From: Candidatus Limimorpha sp.
GTDB taxonomy: Bacteria; Bacteroidota; Bacteroidia; Bacteroidales; F082
Reading direction: 5' to 3'
Assembly: GCA_051875555.1 (NCBI GenBank)
Contig: JBJEGZ010000011.1
Location: 108,452-172,451, forward strand
DNA: 64,000 nucleotides
The position numbers and the translations under genes are program-made. The notes beneath the pieces are model-generated. The model had not been told where the DNA came from. It did not search any database and was given only the letters and a program-made list of their open reading frames with translations. Positions 27,153-47,580 of this stretch are shown piece after piece. Numbering within the stretch: position 1 is the stretch's first letter; each line of letters opens with the position of its first letter.

Positions 27153-27225
<73 letters not shown>

Positions 27226-36737: not shown

Positions 36738-39269
36738 ATGAAAAGATGGATGCTCTTCCTAATAATCGTGTCCCTTCTTCCGACTTTTGTGTTTGGACAG
36801 AAGAATGAAGCCGTTTTGTTTGGAAGAATAACCGATGATAGTGGAAAAACGCTTGAGTTTGTTAATGTCGCGGTCTTGAATACTCAATACGGGGTGGTGT
36901 CTGACAGCCGTGGCAACTATAGCCTTAACATGCCTGCAGATACTCTTTTAGAGGTGGTCTTCTCCTTTATCGGATACGAGGAACAAAAATATAATTTTAA
37001 GATTGGAAGCGGTGAGAAACTTAGGAAGGATGTGACACTCAAGGTCGTGTCAACTATGCTTCCTGACGCTATGGTGCACGACAGGGTGATTAAAACATCA
37101 ACAATCACCCGTCTTGATGCGCGGGAGACGGTGCTTCTTCCGACTTCTGGCGCTGGAGGTGTTGAGGATATTGTTAAGACACTTCCAGGCGTAAGTTCAA
37201 CTAATGAACTCAGCTCACAATACAATGTGCGTGGCGGAAATTTCGATGAGAATCTTATCTATGTGAACGGTATTGAGATATATAAGCCTTTTCTCGTAGG
37301 CTCGGGACAGCAGGAGGGACTTAGTTTTATCAACTCCCGCCTTATTTCTAATATCGATTTCTCAGCCGGAGGCTTCTCCACAGAATATGGCGACAAACTG
37401 TCATCTGTTCTCGATATCACCTATAAAAACCCTACAATTTCCGCTGGCTCGCTGACACTAAGCATGTTAGGAGCGGAAGCCCATGCCGAGGGAAGGATCG
37501 GTGATGGAAAACTCAGTTATCTTATTGGAGCAAGATATAAAAATACAAAATATCTTCTCGGAAAAATGGATACTAAAGGGACTTACCAGCCTAACTTCAC
37601 TGATGTTCAAGGACTTCTGACATATAATGCTTCTTCCCGACTTGAGATTTCGGCACTTGGCTATTATTCGAGAAACAGTTATTTGATGGTTCCCGCTACT
37701 CGTGAGACTGATTTCGGAAATCTTCAAGCATCTTATAGGTTGAAAATTTATTTCGATGGTCATGAGTTAAGTAGATATTCTACCGGATTAGGTGCCTTGT
37801 CATTTAATTATAGTCCAAATGAAGATGTGGTGTTAAAACTTATTGCATCGGCTTATTCTGCCGTTGAGTCGGAGACTTATGATGTGCAGGGACAATATTG
37901 GATTGGACAGCTTGAGACTAACCCGGGAAGCGAGCAGCAAGGCGATGTCATTACAAATCAAGGAGTTGGAACATATATAGAACATGCCCGCAATTTCTTC
38001 TATTCTCAAGTGTTAAATTTAGATCACAAAGGTGCTTATAATTACAATGACAACACTTTGAAATGGGGCGTGCGTTTCCAGCACCAAAGCATAGATGATA
38101 TTATTAATGAATGGGATATGGTTGATTCAGCGGGCTATACGCTGCCACATTTTATCGATTCAATCATAAATCCTAATAATCCTTTACAAACTTCGCTTGA
38201 ACTGAAGAATGTCGCTAATAGTCATAATATTATTAATATTAACAATGTTGATGGTTATTTGCAAAATTCATGGCAGTTTGAGAATGAAAAAGACGATATC
38301 TTCGTTTTGACAGCCGGTATCCGCGCAAATTATTGGGGATATAATGGTGAGATAAACATCAGTCCGCGGGTCGGATTTGCGTTTAAGCCGCATTGGGAAC
38401 GGAATATGACTTTCAGATTGTCGGGCGGCGTTTATGTTCAGCCTCCTTTTTATCGCGAGATCCGTATGTTTGACGGAAGTCTTGTCGATCCGGAGATTGC
38501 CTCATCTCAGAAATCGTTACAGGTCGTTCTTGGTCACGAATATAACTTTATCGCATGGGAACGTCCTTTTGTTCTTACTACAGAATTGTTTTACAAGAAG
38601 TTAAAGGATATTATACCCTATGAGGTTGACAATATCCGTATCCGATATTTTGCTGACCAGAAGGCATCGGGTTATTCCACAGGCATTGATATGAAGATTA
38701 ATGGTGAGTTTGTGAAAGGTATTGAGAGTTGGGCATCATTATCGATTATGAAATCATCGGAGAATATCAGGTATTTCGTTGATAGTGACGGTGTGTTGTT
38801 GTCGCAGACCGATGTTAATAATGGCGCGAGTTATGATCATGACACTATCATCAGCGGGATTCCGCGTCCTTCCGACCAAAGGGTTAATTTCGCAATCTTC
38901 TTCCAAGACTATATTCCTTTTATACCTTCTTTCAAGGTGAACCTGAAGTTGATTTTTGGAACAGGATTGCCGTTTGGACCTTCGGAATCAGAGAGATATG
39001 CCCAAAAAATGAGAATGTCACCGTATCGTCGTGTTGATATAGGATTTAGCAAGCAACTCATCGGTGGAGGTCAGACTGCATCTTTTGGCCCACGAAATCC
39101 TTTACAGTATATTAAAAACTGTTGGCTTAGTTTAGAGGTGTTCAATTTGCTTGGAGTAAATAATGTGAGTTCGTATATGTGGGTCACAGATATTTATAAT
39201 ATTCAGTATGCCGTGCCAAACTATCTGACAAACAGGCAGTTAAATCTTAAACTGATATTAGAGTTCTAA
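36738..39269 (+). CDS. TonB-dependent receptor with N-terminal carboxypeptidase-regulatory-like domain
   Basis: Signal peptide and a CarbopepD_reg-like region (GRITDDSGKTLEFVNVAVL...SDSRGNYSL). Plug motifs (LPGVSS..., RGG...ENLIYVNGIE) are followed by a large barrel. The terminal residues are not the canonical aromatic. The TTG start was replaced by the ATG at 36738. Confidence 0.85.
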   Translation: MKRWMLFLIIVSLLPTFVFGQKNEAVLFGRITDDSGKTLEFVNVAVLNTQYGVVSDSRGNYSLNMPADTLLEVVFSFIGYEEQKYNFKIGSGEKLRKDVTLKVVSTMLPDAMVHDRVIKTSTITRLDARETVLLPTSGAGGVEDIVKTLPGVSSTNELSSQYNVRGGNFDENLIYVNGIEIYKPFLVGSGQQEGLSFINSRLISNIDFSAGGFSTEYGDKLSSVLDITYKNPTISAGSLTLSMLGAEAHAEGRIGDGKLSYLIGARYKNTKYLLGKMDTKGTYQPNFTDVQGLLTYNASSRLEISALGYYSRNSYLMVPATRETDFGNLQASYRLKIYFDGHELSRYSTGLGALSFNYSPNEDVVLKLIASAYSAVESETYDVQGQYWIGQLETNPGSEQQGDVITNQGVGTYIEHARNFFYSQVLNLDHKGAYNYNDNTLKWGVRFQHQSIDDIINEWDMVDSAGYTLPHFIDSIINPNNPLQTSLELKNVANSHNIININNVDGYLQNSWQFENEKDDIFVLTAGIRANYWGYNGEINISPRVGFAFKPHWERNMTFRLSGGVYVQPPFYREIRMFDGSLVDPEIASSQKSLQVVLGHEYNFIAWERPFVLTTELFYKKLKDIIPYEVDNIRIRYFADQKASGYSTGIDMKINGEFVKGIESWASLSIMKSSENIRYFVDSDGVLLSQTDVNNGASYDHDTIISGIPRPSDQRVNFAIFFQDYIPFIPSFKVNLKLIFGTGLPFGPSESERYAQKMRMSPYRRVDIGFSKQLIGGGQTASFGPRNPLQYIKNCWLSLEVFNLLGVNNVSSYMWVTDIYNIQYAVPNYLTNRQLNLKLILEF

Positions 39270-39688
39270 TCGTGGTGAATGATAAAATTTGTGAGCCGGC
39301 AAGATAGAATCATTTCTCCTTCTTCATCTTTCACATCGATATTCCAAACGTGGGTTTGTCTTCCTTGGTGTAAACAAATCGCTTCAGCATAGATGTATGA
39401 GTTCAACTTCCCGGATTTCATGTAGTTGGCTGTTATGTTAATCCCTCTTATCTCATTGTGTTCCAATCCGACAAGGAAGGAAGATCCTACACCGCCGACG
39501 CTTTCAGCAAAGGCTACGCCAGCGCCTCCGTGCATTATGCCGAAAGGCTGGGTCAACTCTTTTTTAATAAACATACGGGCGTGAACGAATCCTGCTTTCA
39601 CTTCAAGGTATTCTATGCCTAAAAAATCCATCAATGTATCTTTATTTAACGCTTTTAACTCCTCAATATTATCACATTTTCCTAACAT
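39266..39688 (-). CDS. PaaI-family hotdog thioesterase
   Basis: FLGIEYLEV..G.V.ARM......QPFGIMHGGA...AES.G is the PaaI/DHNA-CoA thioesterase-like signature. The ORF-track TTG start lies inside the promoter box, so the ATG at 39688 is used. Confidence 0.8.
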   Translation of the reverse strand: MLGKCDNIEELKALNKDTLMDFLGIEYLEVKAGFVHARMFIKKELTQPFGIMHGGAGVAFAESVGGVGSSFLVGLEHNEIRGINITANYMKSGKLNSYIYAEAICLHQGRQTHVWNIDVKDEEGEMILSCRLTNFIIHHD

Positions 39689-39703
39689 ACATTCTTTTTT
39701 CTG

Positions 39704-39711
39704 CAAAGATA
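39704..39711 (-). promoter_or_regulatory. -7 promoter box (TATCTTTG on the minus strand) for the thioesterase gene
   Basis: Plus-strand caaagata, 16-23 nt upstream of the ATG at 39688. Confidence 0.6.
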
Positions 39712-39741
39712 AAAATATTGCCGAGATTTTTGTCTCGGCAA
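39710..39741 (-). terminator. rho-independent terminator ending the riboswitch-controlled two-gene operon
   Basis: 9-bp stem ttgccgaga/tctcggcaa. On the minus strand it is followed by TATTTTTATC. Confidence 0.75.
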
Positions 39742-39758
39742 TAAAAGAATATTTTTTG

Positions 39759-40715
39759 TTACTGTTTAAATATTTTAGCAGTTGAGGAATTGATTTCGAT
39801 GAAATAAAGACCTTTTTGCAATGCGGAAATATCTATTGACTTATTATTAGTGGGTTGTTCCATTACCAGTGTGCCGGTTAGACTATAAATTCGGCATTCT
39901 CCATCAAATGGAAGATGCAATAAGGTGCTACATGGGTTCGGGAACACCTCTATTTTATTGCAGTATATTTCGTTGATGCCAAGATGTGCCACGTCGTGAA
40001 TAACACCGACAGCGTCAAGGTCAAAGCCGCTCGATTCAAAAGGTGTTGGCCAAGGGTCGTTTACAATGTTTCCCTCAGAGTCGTATGTTGCATATTCTGG
40101 GTCGATATTTCCAACGACATCAACAACCCTTACATGTGTAATGTTTTGTTTATCAAGGAGAACGTTATCTTCAATGTCGTCTAAATCGAATGGTGTGCCA
40201 TAAAGCGCCATATACTTACCTGCAAGGTTGTGAACCTTTGTACAGTCAGAGAATCCGAAACCATCGGTTTGTGTCTCGGTTTGTGTCAAAGAAATAGAAG
40301 GGAAACGGAAAAAATGTTCGCCATCGGAGCTTACTTCAACAAAGGCAAATTCAAGGAATCCGTCATTGAAAGAGTTCTCGAATACTGCGAAATCCGGACC
40401 GGGACCGTTGCATATAGGAGAAGCGAAAGTCAGGACAGCGTTACCGCCGTCACCGAGGCTCACTACTGACATCGTGCCGTCAGCCTTGCCAAGAGCGGCG
40501 TCAGGCTCCCCATACGAGGCGTATCCAAGCGATGGATTGTCTATCTGTTGCAGTCCGCGTTCTAAAATGCAAGATGTAGCCCATGCAACAAAAACACTTG
40601 AATCACAATGGATTGCGGTTGTCCCTTCATGCCCAGCCGGTGGTGCGAATTGAGCGAAGGTCACCGGCTGTAACATGAAAACTAAAAAACATAAATAACC
40701 AAGTTTTTTTATCAT
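39759..40715 (-). CDS. secreted protein with T9SS type-A C-terminal sorting domain, unknown function (second gene of the B12-riboswitch operon)
   Basis: Signal peptide (...PVTFAQ). Core contains LGDGGNAVLTF...GPGPDFAVFEN...FAFVEVSSDG and DLDAVG. C-terminus reads VFPNPCSTLLHL....IYSLTGTLV....GLYFIEI, the T9SS CTD pattern. The start overlaps the upstream stop (ATGA). Confidence 0.8.
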   Translation of the reverse strand: MIKKLGYLCFLVFMLQPVTFAQFAPPAGHEGTTAIHCDSSVFVAWATSCILERGLQQIDNPSLGYASYGEPDAALGKADGTMSVVSLGDGGNAVLTFASPICNGPGPDFAVFENSFNDGFLEFAFVEVSSDGEHFFRFPSISLTQTETQTDGFGFSDCTKVHNLAGKYMALYGTPFDLDDIEDNVLLDKQNITHVRVVDVVGNIDPEYATYDSEGNIVNDPWPTPFESSGFDLDAVGVIHDVAHLGINEIYCNKIEVFPNPCSTLLHLPFDGECRIYSLTGTLVMEQPTNNKSIDISALQKGLYFIEINSSTAKIFKQ

Positions 40716-41473
40716 TTTACAATAAGTTTCATTGTGTCACTATAGTTCGATGTATTTATTGAAATGAAATAAATTCCATTTGTAAATACTTCTGTATCAA
40801 TGAAATATATTGTCTCGCCATCAATGTTGATGATGTCCGACTTTATTGCTCTTCCTTGAATGTCGTATATTGTGATGCTCACGTTCTCACCGTTACCAAC
40901 AAGGTTGAGGTATGTACCCGTTGTTGCAGGATTTGGGTAAAGCGATGCGCTGACACTGCTGTTTTCAGCAATGCCGAATATGTTTGTCGCTGGTGTTACT
41001 GTCTGTGTCCACACATAAACCCATTGTCCGACTTCTGTCGCACATGACTCATCGCCCCATTTGATGTAATCGCCGTTTACAACTTCCTGCGTCTCATAGC
41101 CAAAGTTTGCCATTACTCCATTAACCAAAAACAACCAGTACATTCCGGATAGTGAGAGATGTGTGTCGCCCTCGTTGTAAGTTATGTCTGTGACCATGCC
41201 GTTGCTTGCACTGTAATCGAAACGGTTGTCGTCGTTAGCAACGGCATCCATCACTTCCTTTGTGGTAACTGATTCACCATTAAAGCGATAGCCCCAAGCT
41301 AATGCTATGTTTGGATTGTTCCAGTTTACGATAAAGATGACCTCGCTGTTTCCTTCACCAATCCAATATTGTATCTCATCTGCCGAGATTGTTGCGTCTT
41401 CTTGTGAATAAGAATTAGCAAATGTTAAACATAATACTGTTAATAAAAAGAATTTAGTAAATAATTTAAGCAT
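40712..41473 (-). CDS. secreted protein with T9SS type-A C-terminal sorting domain; N-domain resembles the DUF4430 / transcobalamin beta-domain pattern (first gene of the B12-riboswitch operon)
   Basis: Signal peptide (...FANSYSQ). Motif run YWIGEG..EVIFIVNW...ALAWGYRFNG...YWLFLVNGVMANFGYETQEVVNGDYIKWGD. C-terminus LYPNPATTGTYLNL...ITIYDIQGRAI...GIYFISI is the T9SS CTD pattern. Confidence 0.75.
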   Translation of the reverse strand: MLKLFTKFFLLTVLCLTFANSYSQEDATISADEIQYWIGEGNSEVIFIVNWNNPNIALAWGYRFNGESVTTKEVMDAVANDDNRFDYSASNGMVTDITYNEGDTHLSLSGMYWLFLVNGVMANFGYETQEVVNGDYIKWGDESCATEVGQWVYVWTQTVTPATNIFGIAENSSVSASLYPNPATTGTYLNLVGNGENVSITIYDIQGRAIKSDIINIDGETIYFIDTEVFTNGIYFISINTSNYSDTMKLIVK

Positions 41474-41631
41474 AACGTTAAAAATTAATTAATAATACAA
41501 TATTTTATTAATGGGAAAAACCTATTAAAAATCAAAAAACAATATTTTTTGTCCTACAAAGAAGGCAAAACAAATTCCATTCTATGATTTTTTATGATAG
41601 TTTTTATCCCGAAAACCATTTATTCATTGTG

Positions 41632-41790
41632 AGAGGCAGGTCTTCTGACTTATTCCTTACACCTGATGTCTTCCCGGAAGTGTGAGACCTCCAGTGACGT
41701 ATTGACAGGTGCTATTAGAATTTACAGCAGCGGGAACTGTCCGGGACTTTCACCCGATTCCCTATTGAGTCCGTTGTGGACACCTTTCAA
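41632..41790 (-). promoter_or_regulatory. cobalamin (B12) riboswitch
   Basis: The minus strand reads ...AATAGGGAATCGGGTGAAAGTCCCGGACAGTTCCCGCTGCTGTAA...GTCACTGGAGGTCTCACACTTCCGGGAAGACATC... These are the conserved core (AGGGAA..GGTGAAA.TCC...CCCGC.GCTGTA) and a B12-box-like GYCACTGG...GGGAAG. A promoter box lies immediately upstream, and the first gene starts about 160 nt downstream. Confidence 0.85.
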
Positions 41791-41795
41791 CTTTG

Positions 41796-41803
41796 CAAAA
41801 ATA
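41796..41803 (-). promoter_or_regulatory. -7 promoter box (TATTTTTG on the minus strand) driving the riboswitch leader
   Basis: Plus-strand caaaaata, immediately upstream of the riboswitch 5' end. Confidence 0.6.
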
Positions 41804-41878
41804 AGCTAAAATTCTGATATGGTGAGTTTTTTTTAGAAAAAAATTACTAATAATTCTAATGTGTTAGTATTCAAAAAG

Positions 41879-42547
41879 TTACTTCTTTTTACTTTTTGAA
41901 TTCTGTTTCTTTGACAACTGATGTGACAATGATGCCAATGAGGAGGCAAGGTTCTCGTTCTTAACCAAAATGCCCTCGGGAACGTTGAGAAGTGTGAATG
42001 GGAAGTTCCAAATTGCAAGTATCCCGCTTTCAACCATGAGGTCGCACACCTGTTGAGCCTGGTCTTCTGGCACAGCAATTATCCCTATCTTTATGTTCAT
42101 ACGTTTTACTATGGAGGACAGCTTCTCAAGTGGAAAGATATATTTCCCGTTTATTTGTTCTGAATACAACCTCTCATCTTTATCAAAACCAGCGACAATG
42201 TCTAACCCTAATCGAGCAAACCCTTTGTTAGCCAATAATAAACGCCCCAAACTTCCAACCCCAACAAGCACAGCCTCGTCTTTGTTGTTGTATCCAAGGT
42301 ATTCCTTCATGTCCTTTAACAGTATCCCAACGTTGAACCCCAAACGTGGCTTGCCTGATACTGAACTTACACTGGCAAGGTCCTTCCTCACTAAAACCGG
42401 GTTTAGATTCAGATTCTTAGCGATGTCGGTGGCAGAAACATTTTTAACACCTTCATCTTCAAGTTTCATTATGTAACTATAATACAATGGCAATCGATTT
42501 AATGTCGATTGCATGATAACTAATGAATTGTTAACTTTGTTTTTCAC
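41879..42547 (-). CDS. rex: redox-sensing transcriptional repressor Rex
   Basis: LNRLPLYYSY...VSATDIAKNL.....VRKDL winged helix, followed by Rossmann GVGSLGRLL. The ORF-track start is a GTG at 42547. An alternative ATG lies at 42514. Confidence 0.85.
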   Translation of the reverse strand: MKNKVNNSLVIMQSTLNRLPLYYSYIMKLEDEGVKNVSATDIAKNLNLNPVLVRKDLASVSSVSGKPRLGFNVGILLKDMKEYLGYNNKDEAVLVGVGSLGRLLLANKGFARLGLDIVAGFDKDERLYSEQINGKYIFPLEKLSSIVKRMNIKIGIIAVPEDQAQQVCDLMVESGILAIWNFPFTLLNVPEGILVKNENLASSLASLSHQLSKKQNSKSKKK

Positions 42548-42816: not shown

Positions 42817-43410
42817 CTATCGTATTTCAAAATCATCTATTATATTGTTAATCAATGCATAAACCGTTAATCCGGATACTGATTTGATTCCTGTCTTCTT
42901 GATAATGTTTTTCCTGTGTGTTATCACTGTGTGGATAGATATGAACAGTTTCTCGCTTATCTCTTTATTTGTCAATCCTTTTACAAGTGCTATGAGAACT
43001 TCTATCTCTCTATTTGTAAGTTCAATACTTTCGTTCTGAGGTGATGCTAAAGTGCTGCTTTTTAATATGTTAAAGATTTTGTTCGCGACTTTCTGTTTTG
43101 AATCGTTCATCTCTATTACTTCGTCAAATTTTTTTAACATTTCTTTTTCAATATAAGAACTGACGAAGGCAAAGACTTTCAAGTCGGAGAAGTTACTCTG
43201 GATTTTATTAAGAATATCGCTGTTTGCTGTTAGTAATGGATTTATTATCAATATATTAGGATTGTAAATCAGGATTTTCTCCTCTAATCTGTCTATGTTA
43301 TCGAGTTGTGATATTACAGAAAGTTGGCTGAACTCTTCGAGAAAAGAAGTGAGGCCACAAACGAGTATCGGTGATGGGTCAACTATGATTATTTTGTTGT
43401 CAGCATTCAT
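42817..43410 (-). CDS. LuxR-family HTH regulator with a degenerate (pseudo-)receiver domain
   Basis: C-terminal LTNREIEVLIALVKGLTNKEISEKLFISIHTVITHRKNI is a LuxR/GerE HTH. The N-domain has a CheY-like layout. The phospho-acceptor position reads NILIINPLL (Asn, not Asp), the acidic pair is reduced to IIVDPSP, and no beta5 Lys is present. Confidence 0.8.
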   Translation of the reverse strand: MNADNKIIIVDPSPILVCGLTSFLEEFSQLSVISQLDNIDRLEEKILIYNPNILIINPLLTANSDILNKIQSNFSDLKVFAFVSSYIEKEMLKKFDEVIEMNDSKQKVANKIFNILKSSTLASPQNESIELTNREIEVLIALVKGLTNKEISEKLFISIHTVITHRKNIIKKTGIKSVSGLTVYALINNIIDDFEIR

Positions 43411-44095
43411 TGATACTATTTTCAAGTGATTCGACAAATGGGATAAGCACACGTTCCTCTATCATTTTGTGGCATGATAAGTCGGAGGATAAGTCAATGA
43501 TATCCAATGATATCTCTATGCGTTCCTTTGGAAAAACATCGGCTGGGAGATATTTGACGAGGATATTCATCAAATCGGAGAGTTTGTCCTCTATATTGGT
43601 ATGGTTCCTATGGAATTCCCTCATGCTGAAGTGAGAGATAACATCGTGAGAGACAATTTGTTGCAGGTATGGGAACACTTTCTCCTCCTCATATTTGAAA
43701 TGTTCAACCACTTCGTTTTTATAGTCGTTGAAGAAACGTTTCAACGTTGGTCCGTATTTTGGAGTACATGCGTCTATAATATGATTAAGGTGTTCTTCGA
43801 TGTGAGGCAGACGCTCGCAAAGATAATAGTTATGCGATTCTAATAAAAAGTTAATTAACACTTTAGAGTCAACCATCATTATGTCGTCGTTTGAAGGCGA
43901 GAAGTCGTTGTTGCAATAAACGTTGCAAATCATAAGGAAAAAATGAGGTGATACCTTACTTTCCTCACATACTTCGCGCACGCTGCGGTCACCGAAACCG
44001 AGTTTTATGTCAAATCGTGGGAGCATCAGCAATAGTTTCGTGTTGCTGAGTACCAAGTCGGACATCTTCATTGTTTCTGAAAACACATTTCTCAT
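43400..44095 (-). CDS. hemerythrin-like metal-binding domain protein (RIC/ScdA-like layout)
   Basis: His/Glu-rich helical motifs (HNYYLCERLPHIEEHL, EEKVFPYL, HRNHTNIEDKL, EERVLIPFV). Its 3' end overlaps the LuxR gene start by 11 nt. The TTG ORF-track start lies inside the promoter box, so the ATG at 44095 is used. Confidence 0.65.
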   Translation of the reverse strand: MRNVFSETMKMSDLVLSNTKLLLMLPRFDIKLGFGDRSVREVCEESKVSPHFFLMICNVYCNNDFSPSNDDIMMVDSKVLINFLLESHNYYLCERLPHIEEHLNHIIDACTPKYGPTLKRFFNDYKNEVVEHFKYEEEKVFPYLQQIVSHDVISHFSMREFHRNHTNIEDKLSDLMNILVKYLPADVFPKERIEISLDIIDLSSDLSCHKMIEERVLIPFVESLENSINEC

Positions 44096-44110
44096 GTTAA
44101 AATTTTTCTG

Positions 44111-44118
44111 CAAAGATA
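44111..44118 (-). promoter_or_regulatory. -7 promoter box (TATCTTTG on the minus strand) for the hemerythrin-luxR pair
   Basis: Plus-strand caaagata, 16-23 nt upstream of the ATG at 44095. Confidence 0.6.
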
Positions 44119-44163
44119 ACTTCTTTTTGTTTACTAAGTGTTTGGTTTTATAAAAATAGCCTT

Positions 44164-44213
44164 AAATGATTATACACATGGTGATAAATCACAATTAATG
44201 GTGATGATTATAA
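44164..44213. promoter_or_regulatory. candidate Fur-type operator region in the divergent promoter
   Basis: AT-rich GAT-hexamer-like repeats. ATGATTATA occurs twice (44166, 44204) and the palindrome GTGATAAATCAC lies at 44181-44192. The region sits between the hemerythrin/LuxR promoter and the porin-feoAB promoter. Confidence 0.3.
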
Positions 44214-44227
44214 AAGTGAATCTGAAA

Positions 44228-44235
44228 TACTTTTG
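44228..44235 (+). promoter_or_regulatory. -7 promoter box TACTTTTG for the porin-feoAB operon
   Basis: TAnnTTTG match 58 nt upstream of the ATG at 44293. The ORF-track start at 44233 is the TTG inside this box. Confidence 0.55.
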
Positions 44236-44292
44236 CATTGTCAAAAAGTAATATCGGAATTAACAGAAATTAACAATCGAAAGAACCAACTA

Positions 44293-45387
44293 ATGGGCTT
44301 AAATAAAATTTACTTAGGATTGAAAATAATGATTTTATTCATTGCCATATTTTTATGTTTTGATGATTCGCTTGCACAAGATGCACCCGTCACCGTGAGT
44401 GCATCTTACAAAGCGGATTATCTCTATAATATGTCGGGCGGTATCGAAGTCGGAGGAGGATATTTGGGATATGGTCAGATGGGGCTTAGTGTTGACTTTG
44501 AAGCTCTTAACCTTTGGAAAAATGGAGAGTTTTTCATCGGAGGCGCCACTACGCATGGTGCAACCCCATCGGCAAGTTTTATCGGTGATTTGCAAGTCGC
44601 TGATAACATTGAGGCCGGCGAATACGTTTATCTGGAACAGCTTTGGTTTAGGCAGAATCTTGGACGCTTCATGTTAAAGATTGGTCTTCAAGACCTTAAC
44701 GAGCATTTTGTGGAATCATCACCTGCATCGGAATATATTAACAGCTCTTTTGGTATAAACTCGGTGATAAGCACTAACATGGATGCTCCAATCTTCCCTG
44801 TGATGGGACTTGGCGTTGAGTTGAATTATTCCTTTAATGACAAATGGCATGCACAAATCTGCGCGTTTGACGGACAACCTGCTGATTTTGAAGAAGATCC
44901 TCATAATCTGCATTGGAAGATAAATAAAGATGAAGGCGTGTTGCTGTTAGGTGAAGTTCATTACACTGATGATAAAAATGGTGTAAAAGTTGGTGGTTTC
45001 CATCACTCTTCCAACAATAAGTCTGGCGCCTACCTGTTGGCTGACAGAACCTTGTTCGAGAATCATCGTAGAGACGTGGTGTCCTTCCTCCATACAGCAT
45101 ACTTGTTCAATATTGGTGAGAATGATAACTACTTAAACATTGCTTTAGGCGCTAACCTGAACGGGGTCTTCTCAAAGGAAAAACGTGATGTGCTTGGGAT
45201 TGCAACAACTAATGCCTTCATCAAAAACAATAACCTGGAGTCGGCAATTGAGTGCTTCTATAAGTATAACTTGACCGATTGCCTGTCATTAATGGGTGAT
45301 ATCCAATATATTATAAACCCATTCAATGGAGAGGTGTCGCTGCCTAATGCTTTGGTCGGAATATTCAGACTTTGTATAGAGATATAA
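44293..45387 (+). CDS. OprB-family (carbohydrate-selective-type) porin
   Basis: Signal peptide, then VSASYKADYLYNMSGGIEVGGGYLGYGQMGLSVDFE...LW..G.F is the OprB-like N-terminal pattern. It directly precedes feoAB. Confidence 0.7.
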   Translation: MGLNKIYLGLKIMILFIAIFLCFDDSLAQDAPVTVSASYKADYLYNMSGGIEVGGGYLGYGQMGLSVDFEALNLWKNGEFFIGGATTHGATPSASFIGDLQVADNIEAGEYVYLEQLWFRQNLGRFMLKIGLQDLNEHFVESSPASEYINSSFGINSVISTNMDAPIFPVMGLGVELNYSFNDKWHAQICAFDGQPADFEEDPHNLHWKINKDEGVLLLGEVHYTDDKNGVKVGGFHHSSNNKSGAYLLADRTLFENHRRDVVSFLHTAYLFNIGENDNYLNIALGANLNGVFSKEKRDVLGIATTNAFIKNNNLESAIECFYKYNLTDCLSLMGDIQYIINPFNGEVSLPNALVGIFRLCIEI

Positions 45388-45405
45388 CATTAATAAATGT
45401 AAAAT

Positions 45406-47580
45406 ATGGAAAAGGAAGGAATCATGAGACTTTCAGATGTGCCTCAAGGGTCGAGGTGCGTTGTGAAAAATGTTAAAGGAGACGGGAAACTTCGCCTTCG
45501 CTTGATGGAACTCGGTTTTGTTGAGAACGAGCTGGTAAGGGTTATTAGAAATGCTCCTTTGATGGATCCCGTTGAATATCAAGTGATGGACGCTCATATT
45601 TCTTTGAGAAGAAATGAGGCTGAAAAAATTGAAGTGACCATCTTAGATGATAATACAGAATGTCCGTTAAATAATGTTAACAATGAAACTAATGTTGGAT
45701 TAACTGACATTGAGATAGGTGTTGAGAATAGGGAATGCGACTCAAAAAAGAAAACTGATAACAAGATTATTAATGTTGCCCTTGTCGGAAACCCTAACTG
45801 CGGAAAAACATCTTTGTTTAACCATGCTACCGGGCTTCGTGAGAAAGTTGGAAATTATAGCGGCGTCACTGTTGATGCAAAGATAGGAGTGTTCAATTTC
45901 AATGGCTATACTATACGTCTTGTTGATCTCCCTGGAACTTATTCGTTGACAGACTATTCTGCCGAGGAACAATATGTATCTGATTATCTTTTGAACGGTA
46001 ATCCCGATTTGATATTGAATATCGTTGACGCTTCTAATATCGAGAGAAATCTGTTGCTCACTACTCAACTGCTTGATATCGGCCGACCAATGGTAATCGC
46101 ACTTAATATGTATGATGAGTTGCTCTCAAGAGGCGATAGTATTGATTATGAGACTCTTGCCTCACTTCTCTCATTGACAATAGTGCCAACAAAAGCCTCC
46201 TCAGGTAAGGGTATCCCCGATTTGTTGAAGGCTGTGGTTGACGTTTATGAGTGCAAGGACTCGCAACGACTTCATCTCGACACATCTGGTTTGGATAAAG
46301 ATGAGGCGACCGCTTATCGTTACAGATTCATTCGCGAACTCTTAGACAAGGTGTATAAAAGCGGTGATAATGTAAAGCGTTCAAAAGCTTATAATGCTGA
46401 TAAAATCCTTACAAATAAATGGCTTGGCTTCCCTATCTTGGTGATTTTCATGTGGTTGATGTTCGAAGCAACCTTTACAATAGGTGCCTATCCACAAGAA
46501 TGGATCGAGAGTGCTACGGAGTGGCTGTGTGATTTGGTGGGATCTTGGCTTAATGAAGGTATTTTACGCGACTTGATAGTTGACGGTATTATCGCAGGTG
46601 TTGGCGGAGTGCTCGTTTTCCTTCCTAATATTCTGATACTCTATTTCTTTATCGCAATATTAGAGGATACGGGCTATATGGCGCGCGCCGCATTTATTAT
46701 GGATAAGCTGATGCATAAAGTGGGACTGCATGGCAAATCGTTCATCCCGTTTATTATCGGTTTCGGTTGCTCTGTTCCAGCTGTTATGTCGGCTCGCATG
46801 CTTGAGAATAGGAAAGATAGGATTGTAACAATTCTCTCTGTGCCGTTTATGTCGTGCTCGGCCCGACTTCCTGTGTATCTCCTTTTTGTTTCAGTGTTTT
46901 TCGATAAGTATCAAGGACTTATCTTACTCGGAATATATCTTATAGGAATATTGTTCGCTATTATTACCTCATTGATTATGAATAAGACGGCTTTCAAAGG
47001 TCTGTCGCAGGAATTTGTAATGGAATTGCCGCCTTATCGTATTCCAACAACCCGTAATGTGTTGATTCACATGTGGGATAAGAGCGTCCAATATCTGAAA
47101 AAGATGGGAACGATAATTCTTGCAGCCTCAATCATAATCTGGGCTTTGGAGTATTTCCCAAGGAACAATAGCGATGTTGAGATGGCCGAGAATAATATTG
47201 AGAATTCTTATATTGGAAAAATTGGCCATGCCATTGAACCAATTATGCGCCCTTGTGGTTTTGATTGGAAGTTAGGAGTCGGATTGATTACCGGTATTGC
47301 AGCAAAGGAAGTGGTTGTCTCGACTCTTGGAGTTCTTTTAGATGCGGAAGATGAAGATGCGTCTTTGAAGGAGAAAATCAGGGCAATAGATGACTTCACT
47401 CCTGTTAAAGCATTCGGCTTTATGGTGTTCGTGTTATTGTGTACGCCTTGTATAGCGGCCCTTGCAGCAATAAAACGTGAAGCAGGACTGAAATGGGCTC
47501 TTTTTTCCGCCGTATATACTACAGGTCTCGCATGGGTGGTCTCCTGTCTCATTTTTCAAATCGGCAGTTTGATAATATGA
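45406..47580 (+). CDS. feoB: ferrous iron transporter FeoB with N-terminal FeoA fusion
   Basis: FeoA SH3-like region (RLSDVPQGSRCVVKNV...LRLRLMELGF). G-domain GNPNCGKTSLFN, DLPGTYSL and NMYD, followed by the polytopic membrane domain. Confidence 0.95.
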   Translation: MEKEGIMRLSDVPQGSRCVVKNVKGDGKLRLRLMELGFVENELVRVIRNAPLMDPVEYQVMDAHISLRRNEAEKIEVTILDDNTECPLNNVNNETNVGLTDIEIGVENRECDSKKKTDNKIINVALVGNPNCGKTSLFNHATGLREKVGNYSGVTVDAKIGVFNFNGYTIRLVDLPGTYSLTDYSAEEQYVSDYLLNGNPDLILNIVDASNIERNLLLTTQLLDIGRPMVIALNMYDELLSRGDSIDYETLASLLSLTIVPTKASSGKGIPDLLKAVVDVYECKDSQRLHLDTSGLDKDEATAYRYRFIRELLDKVYKSGDNVKRSKAYNADKILTNKWLGFPILVIFMWLMFEATFTIGAYPQEWIESATEWLCDLVGSWLNEGILRDLIVDGIIAGVGGVLVFLPNILILYFFIAILEDTGYMARAAFIMDKLMHKVGLHGKSFIPFIIGFGCSVPAVMSARMLENRKDRIVTILSVPFMSCSARLPVYLLFVSVFFDKYQGLILLGIYLIGILFAIITSLIMNKTAFKGLSQEFVMELPPYRIPTTRNVLIHMWDKSVQYLKKMGTIILAASIIIWALEYFPRNNSDVEMAENNIENSYIGKIGHAIEPIMRPCGFDWKLGVGLITGIAAKEVVVSTLGVLLDAEDEDASLKEKIRAIDDFTPVKAFGFMVFVLLCTPCIAALAAIKREAGLKWALFSAVYTTGLAWVVSCLIFQIGSLII

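Follow-up and report, generated by a model that had tools for sequence, protein, structure and literature searches.

A cobalamin riboswitch upstream of two predicted type IX-sorted secreted proteins in Candidatus Limimorpha: a probable reduced form of a widespread corrinoid-acquisition module

The DNA considered here is a 64-kb stretch (hereafter the window; contig JBJEGZ010000011.1) of a metagenome-assembled genome (MAG) of Candidatus Limimorpha, Bacteroidales. Its minus strand carries a cobalamin riboswitch followed by a compact operon of two genes, termed A and B (Table 1). Both encoded proteins combine a signal peptide with a type-A C-terminal sorting domain (CTD) of the type IX secretion system (T9SS), and both are present at NCBI, where they are labelled solely as 'T9SS type A sorting domain-containing protein'. 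A preliminary description, made from the letters of the sequence, had placed a promoter box and a riboswitch (at about 41790 to 41632) before an operon joined by an ATGA overlap and closed by a terminator at 39710-39741. The box, the aptamer and the open reading frames (ORFs) were all recovered, and the terminator was found a few bases off.

The aptamer matched RF00174 over model positions 1-189 of 189, with 104.2 bits against a gathering score of 31.5 bits, and was the sole riboswitch found by cmscan of the whole window. Its B12 box lies at about 41634-41650, on the same strand as the regulated genes, and about 144-145 nt separate the 3' end of the aptamer from the start codon of A. The Bacteroidetes -7 promoter consensus is TAnnTTTG, and a putative promoter box of this type stands at the 5' edge of the aptamer match; TTTTGC-type motifs occupy the 5' edge of homologous riboswitches in an aptamer alignment from related loci. 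No clear -33 TTTG element was seen at the operon promoter on reading the sequence. The ATGA overlap of A and B measures 4 nt and is kept in three related loci (L001, L003, L020). The terminator has an 11-bp stem with 5 GC pairs, a 6-nt loop and a TTTTTATCTT tail, and a terminator scan of 39000-42500 found no other terminator-like site. The hotdog thioesterase gene that follows downstream is regarded as a separate unit, since a second box (TAtcTTTG) stands right after the terminator and before that gene.

Table 1. Coordinates of the operon, of its neighbours and of selected relatives, with gene orders (5' to 3') and single-ORF fusions in related loci.
Feature	Locus or occurrence	Position	Strand	Remarks
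-7 promoter box TAttTTTG	window	41796..41803	-	Bacteroidetes-type, from sequence reading; putative function
Cobalamin riboswitch aptamer RF00174	window	41618..41802	-	104.2 bits, E 5e-25, full model; B12 box AAGTCAGAAGACCTGCC
Leader / expression platform region	window	41474..41617	-	AT-rich, 144 nt
Gene A	window	40712..41473	-	253 aa; signal peptide + DUF4430/transcobalamin-beta-like domain + T9SS type-A CTD
A, signal peptide	window	41405-41473	-	residues 1-23
A, domain	window	40958-41404	-	residues 24-172
A, CTD	window	40715-40942	-	residues 178-253
Gene B	window	39759..40715	-	318 aa; signal peptide + unnamed conserved jelly-roll-like domain + T9SS type-A CTD
B, signal peptide	window	40653-40715	-	residues 1-21
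B, N-domain	window	39966-40652	-	residues 22-250
B, CTD	window	39762-39947	-	residues 257-318
Intrinsic terminator	window	39706..39743	-	stem-loop 39716-39743 + T-run; closes two-gene operon
TonB-dependent receptor gene	window	36729/36738-39269	+	846 aa; CarboxypepD_reg + Plug
Rex redox-sensing repressor gene	window	41879-42547	-	NF003994, 265 bits
Hemerythrin-domain protein + GerE/LuxR-type regulator (-), then OprB-like porin + FeoAB ferrous iron transporter (+)	window	42817-47580	-/+	
tRNA gene	window	27153-27225	-	RF00005, 68.7 bits
Architecture i	~22 gut/rumen Bacteroidales, other Limimorpha MAGs included			riboswitch, A(2-3x DUF4430)-CTD, B-CTD, BtuG-like DUF5074 lipoprotein, Cys_rich_CWC, Peripla_BP_2 (BtuF-like)
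Architecture ii	5 loci			as i, but ending after CWC
Architecture iii	window and L006			riboswitch, A(1x)-CTD, B-CTD only
Architecture iv				riboswitch, X-CTD, B-CTD, BtuB, BtuG
Architecture v				riboswitch, BtuB, DUF4465-Ig-CTD, B-CTD, BtuG
Architecture vi	Flavobacteriaceae			riboswitch, BtuB, BtuG, B-CTD
Architecture vii	about 11 loci			riboswitch, B-CTD alone
Fusion DUF4465 + B	L050, L082, P0275			
Fusion DUF4430 + B + CTD	P0131			
Fusion B + B + CTD	P0269			
Fusion DUF5074 + DUF4430 + CTD	L070			
T9SS-sorted form, example	L025	6647-7903		
T9SS-sorted form, example	L061	6640-7935		
Cys_rich_CWC gene, example	L003	12088-12246		in riboswitch-controlled operon
Cys_rich_CWC gene, example	L013	10074-10241		in riboswitch-controlled operon
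~430-aa CTD protein, example	L030	56-1366		
~430-aa CTD protein, example	L032	6595-7878		
B homolog with PEP-CTERM	L077	7854-8726		Planctomycetes MAG
B homolog with PEP-CTERM	L082	485-2011		Planctomycetes MAG; also DUF4465 + B fusion

Protein A is assigned, on its profile match and its predicted structure, to the DUF4430 / transcobalamin beta-domain proteins, as had been proposed from a run of sequence motifs. PF14478 (DUF4430) matches residues 80-139 with 32 bits against a cutoff of 23.8, and is also precomputed for most A homologs. An AlphaFold model of residues 24-172 has a pLDDT of 90.4, and the order of its secondary-structure elements fits a beta-grasp with a hairpin insert after the helix. 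The top 16 Foldseek matches in the PDB are all beta-domains of haptocorrin, transcobalamin or intrinsic factor, or the DUF4430 structure 3u7z, with probabilities of 0.66-1.0 and TM-scores of 0.38-0.48 (query-normalised) and up to 0.67 (target-normalised). Single-sequence and profile searches of PDB sequences (E up to 10) matched A in its CTD only. Among the 428 A homologs most have two tandem domains, the majority being of ~397 aa with two, sometimes three, copies of DUF4430. The protein of the window is a single-domain form, which is common in itself (cluster P0009/P0255, on hundreds of contigs). By analogy with the transcobalamin family, A is probably the corrinoid binder of the pair.

The sorting signals proposed for both products were substantiated by profile searches. 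Por_Secre_tail/TIGR04183 scored 45 bits (Pfam) and 49.6 bits (NCBIfam) in A, and 43.4 and 37.5 bits in B, against cutoffs of 27 and 23 bits, respectively. On inspection, both proteins begin with a Sec type-I signal peptide (MLKLFTKFFLLTVLCLTFANSYS in A and MIKKLGYLCFLVFMLQPVTFA in B, each followed by Q), in which a hydrophobic N-terminus precedes a Gln at the cleavage junction (NSYS/QEDA in A and VTFA/QFAPP in B), and neither signal sequence has a lipobox. Gln at position +1 recurs in 48/84 B homologs and 26/27 A homologs. Lipoprotein signals, in contrast, are retained in 50 of the 59 BtuG-like proteins without a CTD. A and B thus have the signals of T9SS-type cargo, from which secretion by this route is predicted. 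In two Planctomycetes MAGs the CTD of the B homolog is replaced by a PEP-CTERM motif (PEPATxxLLxxGGLxxxRRKR), and therefore the same extracellular module appears to have been re-tagged for a different surface-anchoring system. Since B in these organisms carries PEP-CTERM rather than a CTD, the protein would be at the surface whatever the secretion route. The sequences thus indicate that the B domain is consistently routed to the cell surface by the host's own sorting system, be it T9SS CTD or PEP-CTERM.

Protein B had been passed over as having an unassigned beta-rich core. The lack of an assignment stands, given that no Pfam, NCBIfam or PDB family covers it, yet B is the more unusual component of the pair and belongs to an apparently unnamed and uncharacterised family. 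At E up to 1, its N-domain matched no Pfam or NCBIfam family apart from a weak NCBIfam match to the LIC_13355 lipoprotein family (E 0.009), and PDB sequences, profile search included, were matched by the CTD only. A pattern scan of representative genomes with the B alignment found relatives in at least 587 GTDB species. A phmmer scan of 1.84 billion representatives gave 2209 clusters at 50% identity with E up to 1e-3, and 835 with E up to 1e-30. The best 80 loci, in which the N-domain is 58-92% identical to the query, come from Bacteroidales, Flavobacteriales, Cytophagales, Chitinophagales, Saprospiraceae, Sphingobacteriaceae, a Chlorobiota MAG and the two Planctomycetes MAGs. Several origins for B were considered and rejected. 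As a diverged BtuJ it gave no PF14717 match, a BLASTP E of 0.31 and an hhalign probability of about 1%, and no DUF4465 structure was among its top 50 Foldseek matches. As a diverged BtuG or DUF4430 protein it was negative in BLASTP and hhalign. Against alignments of DUF4465, DUF5074 and DUF4430 built from related loci, the hhalign probability of B was 1.1% or less.

The wider context of the operon was examined in 85 related loci, in which six-frame ORFs were labelled by HMMs and spot-checked with Pfam and PDB. HMM domain labelling was used in place of single-linkage ORF clustering, in which shared CTDs and fusions drew A-type and BtuG-like proteins into one group. Riboswitches were surveyed with a strict regular expression for the B12 box plus core, followed by Rfam scans of the non-matching loci. 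A covariance model was dropped in favour of the expression, as the MAFFT alignment of 11 aptamers was badly registered for L069 and L077. The survey of homologs suggested in the preliminary description bore out the linkage to the riboswitch: a B12 riboswitch lies upstream on the same strand in 74/85 loci, and of the 11 without one, seven are cut off upstream by the edge of the contig. In each of 66 loci the pattern matched exactly once, on the strand of B and upstream of it, with no match elsewhere in 1.2 Mb of loci. Rfam added six riboswitches among the pattern-negative loci. An upstream same-strand RF00174 was likewise found by Rfam in 9/9 loci of a first sample, plus L001 and L003.

The genes that accompany B in these loci are those of B12 import. 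Within 6 kb of B and on the same strand, a BtuB homolog is present in 46/85 loci and a BtuG homolog in 60/85, the labels being based on PDB matches to BtuB (8p98, 1e-72) and BtuG (8bmx_D, 1e-69) of B. thetaiotaomicron. The BtuG homologs are genes separate from A and B. The gene orders vary around a constant B, which in some proteins is fused within a single ORF to DUF4465 or DUF4430 (Table 1). In other Candidatus Limimorpha MAGs (L007, L019) the operon is longer, with a two-domain A and three more genes. The two-gene form occurs on hundreds of contigs (P0255 on 319, P0241 on 177) and is 75-92% conserved in other MAGs, the B of L006 being 92% identical. Because the relatives sit in larger riboswitch/BtuB/BtuG loci, the two-gene operon is best seen as a reduced, lineage-specific form of a phylum-wide module and not as a stand-alone system.

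Other components of these loci were also observed. T9SS-sorted kin of known B12 binders include DUF4465 (BtuJ-family) proteins with Ig and CTD, which adjoin B in 21 loci, and DUF5074 (BtuG-like) proteins with a CTD, in 8 loci. A small gene of 52-55 aa, Cys_rich_CWC (PF14375), is found in 21 loci, either between the BtuG-like and BtuF-like genes or right after B. In several btuB-btuG operons, the stretch between the riboswitch and B encodes a protein of ~430 aa in which Pfam recognises nothing but the T9SS CTD, and these proteins may be yet another kind of T9SS-sorted product of B12 loci.

The btu operons of B. thetaiotaomicron, which are under riboswitch control, supply the cell surface with the lipoproteins BtuG (a propeller), BtuH, BtuJ (a DUF4465 jelly roll), BtuK (PKD and propeller) and BtuL (PMC13616437, PMC12751083, PMC8941943, PMC10404256), and surface accessory binders are established in the B12 loci of this organism (PMC13616437, PMC12751083). 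Like BtuG, BtuH, BtuJ and BtuK, A and B are predicted to be accessory proteins that act outside the cell, and a cobalamin riboswitch precedes their genes. Relatives of the A-B locus are co-operonic with BtuB and BtuG homologs, as in the btu operons, and the proposed sequence of capture outside the cell followed by hand-off to BtuG-BtuB resembles that system. Unlike the B. thetaiotaomicron proteins, which are all lipoproteins, A and B have type-I signal peptides and T9SS CTDs, and no transporter gene is present in the operon of the window. Unlike BtuG and BtuJ, moreover, they have no profile similarity to DUF5074 or DUF4465, nor to one another (hhalign at most 1.1%); DUF4465 and DUF5074 homologs neighbour B directly or are fused to it elsewhere. 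Homology to BtuG was not detected in either protein (no PF16819 match; hhalign probability against DUF5074 of 0.4% or less). No Btu protein was matched when PDB sequences were searched with A or B. BtuH and BtuK were absent from the PDB profile matches (E up to 10) and the Foldseek matches of A and B, the sequence of BtuH itself not being compared pairwise. The claim that neither product is a BtuB, BtuG, BtuJ or ABC/ECF component was thus upheld, domain and profile searches being negative for such families.

Extracellular capture by transcobalamin-like domains is not a new idea in bacteria, as Burroughs et al. (2007) predicted extracellular transcobalamin-like SLBB proteins to be B12-uptake factors (PMC1796856). 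Protein A resembles that set in being predicted to be secreted and surface-sorted, and in belonging to a family that often has tandem copies. The 2007 proteins are mainly from Firmicutes and archaea, with sortase anchors and CbiO/CbiQ-type operons, whereas A has a Bacteroidota host, a T9SS CTD as its anchor and control by a cobalamin riboswitch. To our knowledge, B12 binding by bacterial DUF4430 proteins is still a prediction. The isolated human beta-domain binds cyanocobalamin (PMC5599065; structures 5no0/5np4). Compared with the transcobalamin family A has no alpha/alpha-toroid domain, so that binding would rest on the beta-domain alone and affinity may be lower. Among T9SS-sorted cargo, HBP35 of Porphyromonas gingivalis is a tetrapyrrole-binding protein whose ligand is heme. 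A and B would resemble it as nutrient- or tetrapyrrole-binding types of protein displayed through a T9SS CTD, but the domains are unrelated, and HBP35 is not known to be under riboswitch control. In the open-access literature, no paper was found that links T9SS or type IX secretion with cobalamin, cobamide, corrinoid, BtuB or BtuG, and T9SS-sorted forms are not mentioned in the DUF4465 papers examined.

Taken together, these data suggest that the pair is probably a B12-repressed two-gene operon for the extracellular parts of corrinoid acquisition, derived or reduced from longer ancestral operons. Repression by the ligand is expected from the known behaviour of the riboswitch family. Protein A, and perhaps B, would bind corrinoids, which would be transferred to a transporter encoded elsewhere in the genome. 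The preliminary description had proposed novel B12-repressed, T9SS-sorted corrinoid scavengers. The riboswitch linkage, the CTDs and the absence of a paper connecting T9SS with B12 support this proposal in part; the pair is not, however, self-contained, but a reduced form of a widespread module. As regards novelty, extracellular capture as such was foreshadowed by the 2007 prediction, and what appears unreported in the open-access literature searched is the link between T9SS and B12. The module is apparently an undescribed T9SS-displayed (or PEP-CTERM-displayed) branch of the B12-capture machinery of Bacteroidota.

The following sequence of events is proposed. At low intracellular cobamide the riboswitch would leave the transcript, or its translation, on. 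A and B would then be exported by Sec, with cleavage by signal peptidase I exposing the N-terminal Gln, and would pass through the type IX secretion system by way of their CTDs, to be anchored at the surface or released. Protein A would capture corrinoids with its transcobalamin-beta-like (DUF4430/SLBB) domain. Protein B, as the invariant partner, may likewise bind corrinoids or take part in their hand-off, or it may be an adaptor between the BtuG-BtuB outer-membrane importer and binders that vary from locus to locus (DUF4430, DUF4465/BtuJ-like or BtuG-like T9SS cargo). In this genome the importer would be encoded outside the window.

The N-domain of B may accordingly represent a new class of extracellular corrinoid-handling protein, one that binds corrinoids directly or is an obligatory hand-off hub between interchangeable binders and BtuG-BtuB. 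Among the accessory components of B12 import in Bacteroidota other than Bacteroides itself, it would be the most widespread and the best conserved, with further occurrences in some Chlorobiota and Planctomycetes, and T9SS would be a general scavenger route parallel to the lipoprotein route of Bacteroides. The case for this broader proposal is evenly balanced.

Several observations weigh against the preferred explanation. No gene for BtuB, BtuG or BtuF was found in the window, nor was any gene for the T9SS machinery. Terminator scanning and folding did not identify an expression platform in the leader: there is no terminator-like site between the aptamer and the ATG of A, a hairpin at ~41540-41575 is weak and no better than shuffles (-8.1 kcal/mol, z 0.07), and the fold of the whole leader has a z of -1.6. 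Two related loci, L056 and L084, encode B with a CTD and have ample room upstream, but no RF00174. Both are possible riboswitch-independent variants, and L056 still has BtuB and BtuG downstream. For A, the Foldseek E-values are marginal (0.035-0.5). For B, the model is only moderately confident (pLDDT 75), and its nearest folds in Foldseek are CBM32/F5-8-type-C-like jelly rolls, which are not known B12 binders. Finally, over the same genome pairs, the median pairwise identity of B is 58%, against 32% for BtuG-like, 27% for BtuB-like and 42% for DUF4465 proteins, the figure for B being inflated by the choice of loci for their similarity to B. The contrast is large despite this bias; such conservation is atypical for a surface protein that simply captures a ligand, and it hints at an enzymatic role or one with several partners. 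Because B is so strongly conserved, two alternatives to direct binding, an adaptor and an enzyme, were kept alive.

The adaptor alternative is best regarded as a refinement of the preferred explanation, with which it overlaps, and it is a tentative one. On this view B itself would not be a binder and would serve as a conserved docking or adaptor subunit; the corrinoid would be bound by the adjacent variable protein, which B would tether to the surface or to BtuG-BtuB, or B would catalyse the hand-off. B is constant while its immediate partner switches among three unrelated B12-binding domain types, it is fused to such binders in several proteins, its conservation far above that of BtuB and BtuG in the same genomes is as expected for a multi-partner interface, and its fold class is that of a generic binding module. 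Nevertheless, the loci in which the riboswitch is followed by B alone are easier to explain if B itself has a ligand-related activity. BtuJ is likewise a jelly-roll B12 binder (PMC12751083), so that the fold is no argument against binding.

It is unlikely that B is instead an extracellular enzyme that frees corrinoids from host or microbial carrier proteins, or modifies them, for capture by A. In favour of this reading, 87 B sequences from several classes share 43 positions with an invariance of 97% or more, often occupied by Asp, Glu, Ser, Asn, Lys or Tyr, and B is more conserved than the transporter itself. However, no catalytic family was matched in Pfam, NCBIfam or PDB, and the folds matched are non-catalytic CBM32/discoidin modules. 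Structural Ca2+ sites are typical of CBM32/discoidin-type jelly rolls, and the acidic invariant residues fit such sites equally well.

Slightly more doubtful still is a reading in which riboswitch control serves a B12-related role other than uptake, such as the sequestration of corrinoids from competitors, or a co-regulated surface function independent of B12. No transporter is linked to the genes in this genome, and binders that are secreted or released might serve as competitive sinks, but the embedding of the B family in btuB-btuG operons across the phylum ties the family to import rather than to sequestration alone. That the pair is a decaying remnant, which no longer serves B12 uptake after the loss of one A domain and of the BtuG-like, CWC and BtuF-like genes, as the fuller operons of the same genus and the lack of a linked transporter gene might suggest, is very improbable, given that neither ORF is disrupted and each retains a complete signal peptide and CTD, that the riboswitch scores as high as in full operons (104 bits here, 100-110 bits there), and that the two-gene form is conserved on so many contigs.

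Around the operon, the nearest TonB-dependent receptor is convergent to it and lies outside the riboswitch unit, as had been noted. It was considered as the missing BtuB and rejected, with no match to a BtuB HMM made from 45 operon-linked homologs (E up to 0.01) and no BtuB chain in a PDB search. In about 10 related loci (L008, L009, L020, L021, L026, L031 and L042 among them) a member of this receptor's ORF cluster likewise stands downstream of the A-B operon in convergent orientation, and this synteny may reflect shared ancestry or a functional link. Neither a DUF4465 gene nor a further CTD protein was found in the window. On the other side, upstream of the riboswitch promoter, a gene for a Rex redox-sensing repressor on the same strand stops about 75 nt short of that promoter, and the genes beyond it form a metal/redox-themed neighbourhood beside the B12 unit. 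A tRNA gene lies further away.

B12 and other cobamides are scarce and contested in gut, rumen, marine and soil communities, and current models of their capture by Bacteroidota derive almost wholly from the lipoproteins of Bacteroides (BtuG, BtuH, BtuJ and BtuK). The present locus and those related to it suggest that a further set of capture proteins, phylum-wide and parallel to these lipoproteins, is delivered by type IX secretion. This set would include a bacterial counterpart of the transcobalamin beta-domain as well as the unnamed domain of B. Cultured carriers exist, among them Mariniflexile gromovii, Mesonia ostreae, Algibacter and Flavobacterium. If the proposal is true, the B12-uptake relay would gain a new protein family and a further route of secretion, thousands of proteins whose present annotation is just 'T9SS type A sorting domain-containing protein' would acquire a function, and T9SS would be tied to micronutrient competition.

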